Part shown: positions 2,186-5,822 of the stretch, piece by piece
How the letters are laid out: every line of letters starts with the position of its first letter
Numbering within the stretch: position 1 is the stretch's first letter
Source of the DNA: a virus
Lineage: Duplodnaviria; Heunggongvirae; Uroviricota; Caudoviricetes
Direction: 5' to 3' (one strand)
IMG/VR virus record: IMGVR_UViG_2778261231_000012
Length of the DNA: 30,030 nt
Position numbers and translations under genes: made by a program
Notes under the pieces: generated by a model
Seen by the model: only the letters and a program-made list of their open reading frames with translations
What the model was told of the DNA's origin: nothing
Databases searched by the model: none

Positions 2186-2328
2186 CATTCGAATCCTACT
2201 TTGCTGATCATCTTCGTCTGCGATGGACTCGGTTACGCATCTATCGTCACCCGGGTTCATTTGCTACGGACTACCGAATTTTACGCAATTACATCAGCCG
2301 CTATAAACCATCAGGAGCAGAAGCATGA
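2182..2328 (+). CDS. small basic protein (48 aa), position-equivalent to DLP12 ylcG
   Basis: ATG overlaps the rusA stop (ATGA) and its stop overlaps the next gene's start (ATGA), i.e. translational coupling at both ends; translation [48 protein letters not shown]; below the ORF-track size cutoff. Confidence 0.5.
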
Positions 2329-3089
2329 ATCTCGAAAACACAGTGAAATACCACTTCGCGAAGTCAACGATGATTAGCGACGCTCCACGTGCAACCGCAT
2401 CTGACTCATTAACCGGCACTGACATTATGGCGGCGATCGGAATGACACAGAGCCGGGCTGATCTCGGGTTCAGTGCATTCCTCGGTAAGATGGATATCAG
2501 CGATTACGATCGCGAGCGAGCAATTGACCTGCTGACCAAATATGCAATTGAGCACTGCGATAAGGTTGCCGCCTTACGCAAGCTTGAGAGCGATGTTAAG
2601 CCAAAGGTAATGCAAGTTCTCGCAACTTTCGCCTTTGCTGATTACTCCCGGAGCGCCGCCAGTACCAGAACGTGCGACTGCTGCAATGGAAATAAGTTTG
2701 TCGAAGCTGAAGTAATGACGATGAAGCATATCGGACAGCCACACCTTAGCGAAAAAAGAGAGATGGTTAAGGTGCTTTGCCACAAATGCAAAGGGAAGGG
2801 TGCTCTGACCAACGCATGCCAGTGCAATGGCAAAGGAACAGTATTAGACAAAGAGAAAACTATTCTACAGCGCGGCGTTCCTGCATATAAAACCTGTACG
2901 CGCTGCAATGGGCGTGGTTATGCCAGATTGCTACCTGATAGCGTCCGTAAATACATCTGCGTAACGGTGATGGATATACCTGAAACCACGTGGCGCAGGT
3001 CTTACAAGGATTTTTTCGAAAGTCTGGTAGGTGAGTGCATCAAGCAGGAAGAGTACGCAAACCAGATGTTGAACAAAGTCACGCGATAG
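2325..3089 (+). CDS. putative late-gene antiterminator (Q-like) with DnaJ-type CxxCxGxG zinc-finger repeats
   Basis: 254-aa ORF with AGGAG SD; four Cys motifs CDCCNGNK, CHKCKGKG, CQCNGKG, CTRCNGRG; sits between the nin/rusA block and a promoter/terminator pair preceding the lysis cassette, the canonical Q position. Confidence 0.45.
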   Translation: MNLENTVKYHFAKSTMISDAPRATASDSLTGTDIMAAIGMTQSRADLGFSAFLGKMDISDYDRERAIDLLTKYAIEHCDKVAALRKLESDVKPKVMQVLATFAFADYSRSAASTRTCDCCNGNKFVEAEVMTMKHIGQPHLSEKREMVKVLCHKCKGKGALTNACQCNGKGTVLDKEKTILQRGVPAYKTCTRCNGRGYARLLPDSVRKYICVTVMDIPETTWRRSYKDFFESLVGECIKQEEYANQMLNKVTR

Positions 3090-3131
3090 TGAATGTTTTC
3101 TATGAAATAGGATTTATCTAGAAAACTACAC

Positions 3132-3160
3132 TTTACAAAGTGGCGATTTTTGTTTAATCT
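3132..3160 (+). promoter_or_regulatory. sigma70-type promoter candidate in the pR' position (late promoter)
   Basis: TTTACA (3132-3137), 17-bp spacer, TAATCT (3155-3160), about 45 bp after the Q-like stop. Confidence 0.35.
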
Positions 3161-3194
3161 GAAATCAATGATGGAGTAGTGCATTCATTCGATG

Positions 3195-3224
3195 GCCCTG
3201 AGTTAATAGCTCGGGGCTTTTTTG
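3195..3224 (+). terminator. intrinsic terminator (tR'-like) about 30-55 nt downstream of the predicted late transcription start
   Basis: 8-bp stem gccctgag/ctcggggc (one G-U), 7-nt loop, then TTTTTTG. Confidence 0.6.
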
Positions 3225-3240
3225 TATCTGCACAACAGAT

Positions 3241-3478
3241 AATTGCATTGGGGTGACCGGTTAATCCCGTTACGCTAACCGAAACAGGCGCAGTGCAATT
3301 ATCGTTGTGGTGAATGCGCAGGCTGATGCGCTAACTTATCAGCTAGATGGTGAGGTAAAGGCTCACCATGGCGACGACGGGTAGTTCATTTACATGCCGG
3401 AAAACACAGCACCGGTCACCACACACCAAATACCTACCAGGACCATAAGAGCAAAAGCTCAACGCACTACCCTCTATT
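3241..3478 (+). ncRNA. candidate structured non-coding RNA region between Q and the holin
   Basis: No ORF longer than a few codons on the + strand; hairpins at 3316-3331 and 3347-3369; 10-nt long-range complement 3252-3261 (ggtgaccggt) / 3411-3420 (accggtcacc); ends at a strong intrinsic terminator. Confidence 0.25.
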
Positions 3479-3505
3479 GCCCACCGCGCCGTGGGCTTTT
3501 TTATT
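3479..3505 (+). terminator. intrinsic terminator immediately upstream of the lysis cassette
   Basis: gcccac-cgcgcc-gtgggc hairpin followed by TTTTTTATT. Confidence 0.65.
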
Positions 3506-3609
3506 GCAGGCCGCAGATATCATTTTCAGATGCCATGTAGCAATCAGAGTCTGACGGCCTTTCCCCTACAAACACACACAGCGCCATCCGAAAAATCGGA
3601 GGTGAGGCT

Positions 3610-3888
3610 ATGACCAGAATGAGCACTATTTACAGCAGACTTTCATATGGAACAGGAACCACGCTGACCGGCTGCGGTGTATCAGCGAAGGCATATGCCG
3701 AAACAGCTAAAACAGCAAAAGAGGTGTCCTGGATGTTGGCCGACAGAATTGCAGGGTTAAGCCTGAGCGACTGGGCAATTATTGTCGGTATCGCATGCAC
3801 GGTAATCACCTGTGCAGTGAACTGGTATTTCCGCTGGAAAGAACGGGAGGATCGGCGCAATGGCTATGTCTCTAAAGCTGAAGAATAA
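3610..3888 (+). CDS. holin, S21-like pinholin class with dual-start motif (MTRM)
   Basis: 92 aa; GGAGG SD; Met1/Met4 separated by Arg (holin/antiholin dual start); weakly hydrophobic Gly/Ala/Thr-rich first TMD, second TMD WAIIVGIACTVITCAVNWYF, charged C-terminus REDRR as in recalled phage 21 S. Confidence 0.8.
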   Translation: MTRMSTIYSRLSYGTGTTLTGCGVSAKAYAETAKTAKEVSWMLADRIAGLSLSDWAIIVGIACTVITCAVNWYFRWKEREDRRNGYVSKAEE

Positions 3889-5207: not shown

Positions 5208-5822
5208 TTATCTCTTTGTTGCGTTCATGGTCACATGGTAAACGAATTGGCTAAATTGGTTATCCCAGCGCCCATTATGATTAGCTGCAACTAATTGCAT
5301 TAACGCCTGCATTAACTTGCTGAACAGCAAGATTAACTTAAGTCTGTTTTTTGAACTGTCACTATCTAAGGAAACTTCTTCGGTTAATTGATTCTCGGCG
5401 TTAAAAATACCCAGTTTTGATTCTTCCATGCTGGGTTCCGTTGGATGCTGTTTAAAGTATTCAGTCAGAGTATCCTTCAGGCTCTGGATCCTTGAATCAG
5501 CAATGCTTTGTATTGATGGATTGTGTGCAAGGTCATTACGCATTGAGTTGATGGTTTTAAGTGATTTCATAAGTTCCGGGGGGATTCCCAGGTTTCCCGC
5601 CATGGATATTTTAGTATTACATTCGATTAAAAGTTTGTTTTTATCTCTTCCAAAGAGATCTTGGCAGTCACAGCATGCGCATATCCATGCTTCGACCATG
5701 CGCTCACAAAGTAGGTGAATGCGCAATGTAGTACCCACATCGTCATCGCTTTCCACTGCTCTCGCGAATAAAGATGGAAAATCAATCTCATGGTAATAGT
5801 CCATGAAAATCCTTGCATTCAT
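5208..5822 (-). CDS. hypothetical protein with HEPN-like R-N-x-x-A-H motif; candidate abortive-infection/defence moron in the lambda bor position
   Basis: 204-aa antisense ORF with GGAGG SD 4 nt before ATG; motif SMRNDLAHN at residues 94-101; locally A+T-rich DNA; transcribed against the late operon with a hairpin after its stop. Confidence 0.6.
   Translation of the reverse strand: MNARIFMDYYHEIDFPSLFARAVESDDDVGTTLRIHLLCERMVEAWICACCDCQDLFGRDKNKLLIECNTKISMAGNLGIPPELMKSLKTINSMRNDLAHNPSIQSIADSRIQSLKDTLTEYFKQHPTEPSMEESKLGIFNAENQLTEEVSLDSDSSKNRLKLILLFSKLMQALMQLVAANHNGRWDNQFSQFVYHVTMNATKR

Follow-up and report, generated by a model that had tools for sequence, protein, structure and literature searches.

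In the DNA of IMG/VR virus record IMGVR_UViG_2778261231_000012 (Caudoviricetes), a stretch of 30,030 nucleotides (nt) that is referred to here as the window, the interval between the antiterminator gene Q and the holin gene was found by computational analysis to consist of three stacked RNA modules on the + strand, designated A, B and C. Of these, module B is a phage-borne small structured RNA with the form of a transfer RNA (tRNA) and with a possible kinship to the small RNA (sRNA) STnc100. The gene order at the locus, which comprises RusA (1823-2185), Q, 520 bp without a credible open reading frame (ORF), the holin gene and a lysozyme gene confirmed downstream of it by Pfam, is that of a lambdoid late-gene junction. 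The initial annotation had described the segment 3241-3505 as free of credible ORFs and as a candidate prophage sRNA or an extended Q-dependent antitermination leader. The first of these statements holds, as only two mechanical ORFs of 39 amino acids (aa; 3343-3462, - strand) and 48 aa (3394-3540, + strand) overlap the interval. The features of the locus are as follows.

2325-3089, + strand: Q antiterminator gene, a 254-aa ORF with a match to Pfam PF03589 'Antitermination protein Q' (147 bits)
3131-3160, + strand: putative late promoter pR'/qut block, inferred; CTTTACAAAGTGGCGATTTTTGTTTAATCT is identical just 3' of Q in Salmonella phage SI8
3194-3224, + strand: first intrinsic terminator (tR'-like), an 11-bp stem (3194-3218) with 6 G-C pairs, followed by TTTTTTG
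3231-3309, + strand: module A, a long hairpin, from its inverted repeat and minimum free energy (MFE) folding
3304-3425, + strand: module B, a tRNA-shaped four-way-junction RNA, from the covariance model R1, MFE folding and family covariation
3426-3505, + strand: module C, a trailer of about 80 nt forming an sRNA-like unit, from a terminator scan, its fold and its conservation after tRNAs
3610-3888, + strand: holin gene (Pfam PF16080 and PF04971)

Downstream of Q, the stretch with the putative pR' block is 87% identical to ES18 and SI8, and a TTTACA / 17-nt spacer / TAATCT arrangement was read by eye in this block, at which a promoter scan called no site. Both terminators that had been described previously, the tR'-like one and the one before the holin, were recovered by a terminator scan of 2900-3800, which gave three sites against 0.7 expected; 3165-3226 folds into a hairpin plus the first terminator, and the second terminator has a 6-bp stem with 5 G-C pairs (3479-3496) followed by TTTTTT. 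The stable hairpins claimed for the interval are likewise borne out by the folding energy of 3225-3510, which is -97.3 kcal/mol compared with -79.1 ± 5.5 kcal/mol for dinucleotide shuffles (z = -3.3, with none of 200 shuffles as good). The three modules are conserved separately and the interval is a mosaic, which a megablast search against phage genomes divides into three pieces, namely 3092-3160 with similarity to the Q-proximal promoter region of P22-like phages, 3304-3423 with 91% identity to the Jedunavirus myoviruses ZCEC13 and SBP, and 3426-3608 with 99% identity to Citrobacter phage Omnitron. The prophage is also present in E. coli KCJ3K291 and ET729, with 99.4-99.6% identity over 3090-3608. 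The parts of module B are listed below.

3306-3312 / 3417-3423, + strand: P1, the 7-bp closing stem, with junction J1/2 = AAU
3316-3320 / 3327-3331, + strand: P2, with loop GGCUGA and junction J2/3 = UAAC
3335-3381, + strand: P3 arm, a mimic of 16S ribosomal RNA (rRNA) helix 11 (Rfam SSU_rRNA_bacteria, the small-subunit (SSU) model, positions 237-283, 31.4 bits, E = 2.5e-7)
3396-3400 / 3412-3416, + strand: P4, with loop 3401-3411
3322-3325 / 3407-3410, + strand: pairing between the P2 and P4 loops

Folded without constraints, the window copy of module B adopts the very structure of the family (MFE -41.1 kcal/mol), with P1, P2 and P4 all formed. R1, a covariance model constructed from 30 diverse family members, matches 3304-3425 over model positions 1-120 of 120 (76.1 bits, E = 1.7e-17) as the sole copy in the window, and it finds 165 copies, tandem pairs included, across about 160 fetched loci. 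The 24-mer core GAATGCGCNGGCTGATGCGCTAAC (RNA form GAATGCGCAGGCTGATGCGCTAAC), which is exact in the window, occurs in 46 IMG/VR contigs, and a looser pattern in which the hairpin stem was freed gives at least 120 IMG/VR matches and, when combined with the exact core, at least 98 different sequences, all from phage genomes or contigs. A sensitive search detected a core of about 45 nt in 68 phage records, the carriers including lambda-like HK629, Stx2a phages, P22-like phages, 157-kb Ackermannviridae, and Erwinia, Yersinia and Hafnia phages, and contigs of lambdoid, Jedunavirus, Ackermannviridae and high-GC phages share the 24-nt core without a change. The common scaffold comprises P1, J1/2 AAU, a 5-bp P2 with loop GGCUGA(U), J2/3 (U/G/A)AA(C/A), a P3 of 30-200 nt, J3/4 CA(A/U)G, and a 5-bp P4 with loop AGAUCAGCA that abuts the 3' strand of P1; the P3 central domain is wholly different between subfamilies, and family members range from 90 to 240 nt in size.

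Covariation among the homologues, which had been named as a means of checking the prediction, was assessed by pair counting over 24 pairs in 68 distinct scaffold sequences and 500 shuffles. The fraction of paired cells was 90.1% compared with 83.7% in the shuffles, 14 of the 24 pairs showed compensatory changes on both sides compared with 6.8, and the covariation score was 0.198 compared with 0.085, no shuffle reaching the observed value in any of the three; sliding the partner strands reduced pairing to 27-49%. In P1, compensatory changes are present at eight of nine pairs, and the conserved length of this stem is taken as 7 bp because only the seven inner pairs are kept widely (91-100% of sequences, against about half for the two outer ones). 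Pairing in P2 is complete (100%), and three of its pairs vary on both sides (GCGCA/UGCGC, GCGUA/UACGC, GCGGA/UCCGC and GUGCA/UGCAC). Complementarity between the loops of P2 and P4 extends over 5-6 nt (GCUGAU with AUCAGC), with 95.9% paired and each observed change keeping a wobble pair. Since G-U pairs in the family stems are found on the + strand only, the + strand is the RNA strand.

At gathering thresholds an Rfam scan of the whole window returned no match; relaxed scans gave the SSU fragment and chance matches only (NsiR1, SNORA77, isrD and asX2), scans of 18 family loci gave tRNAs only, and no family in Rfam 15 matches module B, which is also without RefSeq annotation. A description of the family was not found by sequence-string and keyword searches of the literature, in which sequences printed only in figures are unsearchable and an earlier description is possible; the family is apparently both widespread and unnamed. 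The antitermination-leader reading was rejected because many phages carry module B in the absence of Q, well away from any such gene: it occurs in tRNA arrays, in Jedunavirus baseplate clusters and downstream of cI in Stx2a phages. In the Jedunavirus genomes, the homologue of 3304-3423 occupies a 560-bp gap amid baseplate genes, is oriented opposite to them and has a terminator of its own behind it. Two further candidates were discarded, namely a bacterial chromosomal element (the exact core is present in one of 185,579 species-representative genomes, a Rahnella) and a terminator as a family feature (found within 300 nt in 45 of 139 contexts, a count equalled by the antisense control).

The topology of module B is that of a cloverleaf. 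The 7-bp P1 is stacked without a spacer on the 5-bp P4, as in the 12-bp stack of acceptor stem and T arm, P2 stands at the place of the D arm and P3 at that of the anticodon arm, the contact between the two loops corresponds to that of the D and T loops, and the junctions are 3-4 nt long. In contrast to tRNAs, module B has neither canonical D/T loops nor an anticodon arm, and its central arm is hypervariable and 30-200 nt long; it is tRNA-shaped and is not a tRNA. The genomic contexts agree with this likeness. A CCA lies within 5 nt of the 3' end of P1 in 25 of 81 family sequences, and in 10 contexts (among them L058, L151, L119, L164, L066, L048 and L158) module B is located 0-11 nt upstream of a tRNA on the same strand, often in an array of 3-6 tRNAs. 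Furthermore, the slot of module B is occupied by a tRNA-Asn(gtt) in E. coli ET791-type prophages (L165) and by a tRNA-Gln(ctg) in Salmonella phage SI8 (L166); these tRNAs begin a few bases past a tR'-type terminator and are followed by the module C sequence from the CCA onward, and R1 detects no family copy in either locus. A phage contig with a family member (L020) also encodes, 740 nt upstream of that member on the same strand (1351-1428), a suppressor tRNA whose anticodon, tta, reads the stop codon UAA.

Neither this tRNA-like architecture nor the 16S helix-11 mimic in the P3 arm had been noticed in the initial annotation. The SSU score of 31.4 bits is lower than the whole-rRNA gathering score of 50, as is expected for a 47-nt fragment, and an equal SSU match was obtained for a P3 arm of like type at locus L004. 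Relative to E. coli rrsH, the arm has the same structure with all unpaired bases identical (AGCUAG, the GGUAA.GG loop, GGCGACGA and the trailing UAG) and with five base pairs swapped compensatorily (UA..UA to AU..AU; GGG/CCC to CUU/GGG), and because of this combination the sequence comparison suggests selection on the helix shape rather than a recent accidental capture. The arm differs from 16S helix 11 in being an isolated 47-nt helix on a foreign chassis, outside any rRNA gene. The other P3 arm types show no rRNA similarity in cmscan or in blastn against the E. coli rrnH operon, and the idea that all payload arms mimic rRNA was rejected, as only the window type matches. Many P3 arms that are otherwise unrelated have a GUAG motif towards their 3' side (GGUAG at 3380-3384 in the window), as does the sRNA PasD2; the complement of this motif, CUA, lies in the conserved J2/3 junction GCGCUAAC, and the two may form a tertiary or junction pairing.

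The primary assembly protein uS17 binds a site to which helix 11 contributes (PMC4604426, PMC5591316). The chassis might accordingly display a site for uS17, or for another helix-11 ligand, as a decoy that titrates the protein in the infected cell and disturbs or redirects assembly of the host 30S subunit, a proposal that draws on the SSU match, on the identity of the unpaired bases and the five compensatory changes, and on the contact of uS17 with helix 11. We regard it as decidedly unlikely, given that the rRNA likeness is confined to this payload type, that helix 7 is also needed for the full uS17 site (PMC5591316), and that the arm may merely tolerate captured fragments.

The trailer that follows module B, module C, is made up of these parts.

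3426-3428, + strand: CCA, followed by a single-stranded C/A-rich stretch
3449-3460, + strand: hairpin GAGC-AAAA-GCUC
3479-3502, + strand: terminator hairpin with a U6 tail, preceded by single-stranded AACGCACUACCCUCUAUU

Module C is rare, with only 6 phage records. After the tRNA-Asn of the ET791-type prophages it is 98-99% identical to that of the window and after the tRNA-Gln of SI8 it is 89.7% identical, and the terminator stems of the window and SI8 are related by a compensatory change (GCCCAC/GTGGGC versus GCCAGC/GCTGGC). In starting at the CCA of a tRNA or tRNA-like unit and ending at an intrinsic terminator, module C resembles the tRNA-trailer sRNAs of the 3' external transcribed spacer (3'ETS) type, and the pR'-tR' unit upstream parallels the short pR'-tR' RNA StxS (PMC7547250); module C differs from these known examples in having no sequence similarity to them. 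The segment GGGTAGT (3379-3385), where the helix-11 mimic has its base, and ACTACCC (3465-3471) in the single-stranded part of module C are perfect complements within a 12-nt inverted repeat of 83%; module C also exists without module B, and the match may be due to chance.

The occurrence of two tandem intrinsic terminators between a constitutive pR' and the holin gene, an arrangement found alike in sister phages, could also reflect cis-acting insulation, in which the second terminator and the hairpins back up tR' and keep the lysis genes silent in the lysogen while the RNA products have no role of their own. Such a backstop would leave the identity of the 24-nt core, the covarying stems and the tRNA-array contexts unexplained, and this explanation is considered very improbable.

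The Q-to-lysis 'moron' slot is a known home of prophage sRNAs (Tree 2014, PMC4104026; Pas sRNAs, PMC8550237). One of them, PasD, is a Northern-validated, Hfq-associated sRNA of the Q-to-holin slot (PMC8550237), and a kinship between PasD and STnc100 has recently been proposed (bioRxiv 10.64898/2026.05.13.724894). The nearest known RNAs to module B are STnc100 (RF02076), PasD1 and PasD2, which belong to prophages of Salmonella and pathogenic E. coli. Module B resembles them in the order of its helices, which runs from a closing stem through AAU, a 5-bp hairpin and variable hairpins to an abutting 5-bp hairpin and is followed by a linker and an intrinsic terminator, and in occupying the same late-leader niche in lambdoid prophages. 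The STnc100 consensus, in its alignment to phage Magnus, has an 8-bp closing stem GcaUGGUG/CACCAugC and a hairpin CCGGG-AGGCA-CCCGG abutting it; the motifs UGGUGAAU and CCGG.AG..CACC.GG-CACCA are common to it and module B, and PasD2 begins with GCAUGGUGAAUCCUCC..GGGGCUAAAU, which resembles module B. On the other hand, STnc100 and PasD do not have the complementary loops GGCUGAU/AUCAGC, and their variable regions are unrelated to those of module B. With the STnc100 model, whose gathering score is 47 bits, neither 3000-3700 (E <= 10) nor the entire window (gathering threshold) nor any of 13 family loci (E <= 1) was matched, and R1 gave no match to PasD2 or to the STnc100 copy of phage Magnus at E <= 10. 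Because neither covariance model detects the other family, the relationship is described here as a resemblance, plausibly a distant homology, and not as membership. When PasA, PasC and PasD2, taken from E2348/69 by their published coordinates, were compared with the window by blastn-short, only chance 9-13-mers were obtained, with no PasA, PasC or PasD similarity in 3090-3610. The GOLLD and ROOL RNAs offer a more general likeness, as they are phage-borne structured RNAs, often beside tRNAs, with conserved cores, variable regions and loop-loop contacts (PMC12286853 for part of this description); module B differs in its length of 90-240 nt as against about 600-800 nt and in its hosts, which are mainly Enterobacterales phages, and Rfam gave no match to either RNA.

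These likenesses raise the alternative that 3304-3505 is a single Hfq-dependent base-pairing sRNA of about 200 nt and of the STnc100/PasD type, which would regulate host or phage messenger RNAs in trans. Here, the four-way junction would be a stabilising 5' domain, the single-stranded region 3424-3478 would provide the seed (the candidate in module C being ACUACCCUC), and the terminator with its U-tail would be the predicted Hfq module. The order of the parts and the motifs in common with the Rfam STnc100 consensus, the similar start of PasD2, the validated and Hfq-associated PasD in the same slot, and the classic sRNA 3' end of module C, a hairpin and U-tail with a single-stranded stretch upstream, all speak for it. 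However, the reciprocal silence of the two covariance models does not, and module C is conserved on its own and follows true tRNAs elsewhere, and module B has no nearby terminator in about two thirds of its contexts and also stands directly before tRNAs; this alternative appears somewhat unlikely.

Upstream of module B and overlapping it, module A consists of two stem segments.

3232-3237 / 3304-3309, + strand: P0, CACAAC / GTTGTG
3238-3250 / 3291-3303, + strand: PA stem, 13 nt and 92% complementary, with a variable tip at 3251-3290

The MFE structure of 3228-3312 is a single hairpin (-34.2 kcal/mol). Its stem covaries between loci (AAGAGCAtTG/CAgTGCTCTT, ATAATTGCAtTG/CAgTGCAATTAT, AAGCTGCCTG/CAGGCAGCTT and AAGGGAACTG/CAGTTTCCTT), and the tips are unrelated. 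P0 makes use of the 5' strand of P1, so that module A and the tRNA-like fold compete for 4-6 nucleotides. In 41 of 105 distinct contexts, against about 4% expected by chance, a 6-mer with the sequence of the P1 3' strand, and hence complementary to the 5' strand, occurs upstream of module A, and it changes with the P1 variants (GTGTTG with CAACAC in four of five; also ATGATG, TCGATG and GGCGTG). This 6-mer could be a folding switch, a leader pairing that is removed by processing, or the direct repeat of a cassette.

The last possibility belongs to an explanation at the DNA level, according to which the element is a mobile cassette (resembling a miniature inverted-repeat transposable element, or a site-specific insertion) with repeats that serve recombination and an RNA fold that is incidental. 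The patchy, mosaic distribution over unrelated phages, the direct repeats that the 6-mer provides on both sides of modules A and B in those 41 contexts, and the long terminal inverted repeats of ZCEC13 would be consistent with it. However, the G-U pairs are kept on one strand only; the orientation always matches that of adjacent tRNAs, with the exception of L113, whose flanking tRNAs are on the opposite strand; the upstream repeat covaries with the P1 variants as in RNA pairing and not as at a fixed target site; and no transposase or integrase is consistently found nearby. We judge this explanation, too, to be very improbable.

Two observations concern the hairpin tips and other variable inserts. 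T-arm-like sequences (GGTTCGAATCC, GTTCGATTC and GGTTCAATTCC) are present in the module A tips of L043, L052 and L053 and in the P3 arm of L113; they look like tRNA fragments nested in the scaffolds, and ARAGORN calls no tRNA there. At L026 (8040-8125), module A is a chimera whose 5' half is of the AAGAGCATTG type and whose 3' half is of the CAGTGCAATTAT type, so that the stem no longer pairs, which suggests recombination within the hairpin tip.

The initial annotation had placed a 10-nt long-range inverted repeat at 3252-3261 and 3411-3420. The repeat exists with its left arm shifted by one base, GGTGACCGGT at 3253-3262 pairing with ACCGGTCACC at 3411-3420 inside a 25-nt pair of 76% complementarity, but it is not conserved. 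It is probably not the functional pairing, because its left arm falls within the tip of the module A hairpin, which is not conserved, and its right arm is the 3' strand of P4 and P1 in the conserved fold, and it was rejected as a key helix. The inverted repeats that count instead are the PA stem, 3306-3313 / 3416-3423 (8 nt, 100%) and 3347-3354 / 3362-3369 (8 nt, 100%). The proposal of a prophage sRNA broadly holds, in that the interval has a conserved structured non-coding RNA on the late-gene strand, with its own intrinsic terminator and in the Q-to-lysis slot; it is none of the sRNAs known from that slot, according to the Rfam and Pas comparisons, and it is not one RNA built on the 10-nt repeat. 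The original observation is real and its interpretation is supported in part, and any function is argued from sequence.

From the membership of module B in the family, its fold and strand, the tRNA arrays around its relatives, the slot that it shares with tRNAs and the rRNA mimicry, all of which were observed, a mechanism can be proposed in which the interval would be the RNA-gene slot of the late-operon leader on the + strand. RNA polymerase from pR' may pass the first terminator either in its Q-modified state during lytic growth or by leak-through in lysogens. In the resulting transcript, a conserved chassis could fold from the 7-bp acceptor-like stem on the 5-bp T-arm-like hairpin and from the D-arm-like hairpin, with the complementary loops closing the elbow, and it would carry at the place of the anticodon arm an interchangeable payload arm, here the helix-11 mimic. 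Since module B has the shape and the positions of a tRNA, processing by tRNA enzymes is likely, and RNase P, RNase E and 3' trimming would most likely cut module B from the precursor as a stable, folded small RNA. The same cuts could also free a module C RNA of about 80 nt with the terminator hairpin 3479-3502 as its 3' end. We hold with moderate confidence that transcription from pR' runs past the first terminator and through the unit and that host tRNA enzymes excise it, the chassis folding, stabilising and releasing the payload and the trailer RNA. A broader conjecture, which we consider quite unlikely, is that phages of Enterobacterales and beyond use a natural, host-processed tRNA scaffold with interchangeable payloads, the helix-11 mimic here capturing uS17 or another ligand and altering ribosome assembly in lytic growth, and the other payloads acting as decoys or guides for other host factors. 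The competing explanations are not all exclusive of the excision mechanism.

Several observations weigh against the excision mechanism. The MFE structure of the whole interval favours pairing of the upstream CACAAC with the 5' strand of P1, that is, module A, and because of this preference the tRNA-like fold may fail to form in the primary transcript. ARAGORN finds no tRNA or transfer-messenger RNA (tmRNA) gene in the window, and the Rfam tRNA model has no match in 3000-3700 at E <= 10. Recognition by RNase P is not assured, because module B has no canonical D/T loops; in the window, P1 and the CCA are separated by 2 nt and not by 1; and a tRNA lies within 1.5 kb in only 16 of 139 contexts. 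As for the loop-loop pairing that would close the elbow, no double compensatory change occurs among the 68 sequences, because the P2 loop hardly varies: a search pattern with the loop left free returned the same P2 loop in 35 of 36 matches, and the odd 36th match (L055), a candidate for a variant loop, is not a family member according to R1. The P4 loop of the window, AAAACACAGCA, is itself degenerate and keeps four of the five tested loop-loop pairs (GCUG with CAGC), a sixth being possible by eye.

If the proposed mechanism is true, the family would constitute a common, unannotated class of phage RNA genes in the seemingly 'empty' intergenic DNA of lambdoid prophages, Stx phages, Jedunaviruses and Vi1-like phages, and would account for some of the non-coding DNA of the Q-to-lysis slot and of phage tRNA clusters. 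It would be a natural counterpart of the engineered tRNA scaffold for RNA expression, and the dozens of payload arms on one chassis would offer a test bed for small structured RNAs delivered by phages. The helix-11 mimic would make the titration of a primary ribosome-assembly protein a testable hypothesis, and the family would tie the functionally obscure but experimentally known STnc100/PasD sRNAs to a tRNA-like architecture.

Some further features were noted beside copies of modules A and B and elsewhere in the window. In Klebsiella phage Magnus (L053, MN045230; features at 1657-1858, 1905-2247 and 3569-3783), a tmRNA-like tag region GCAAACGAUGAUGUAGUUCUGAUGGCGGCGUAA, which encodes ANDDVVLMAA* and matches the permuted and alpha tmRNA models weakly (E = 0.036 and 4e-4), lies just upstream of the copy of modules A and B, and a bona fide STnc100 match (52.9 bits) is found 1.3 kb downstream; this 2-kb stretch is annotated solely as 'hypothetical proteins' of 30-50 aa and looks like an RNA-gene island. 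In Stx2a_1447 (L052, 2142-2260), about 100-120 bp just downstream of the module B copy recur in 2606 of 5426 complete E. coli genomes (93-99% identity), 245 places on plasmids included, mostly unannotated or under 'hypothetical protein', and appear to be a very common short element. In the window itself, the strand opposite to the lysis genes carries a 204-aa ORF (5208-5822, - strand) for which Pfam gave nothing at E <= 0.01 and which is a possible moron or accessory gene.

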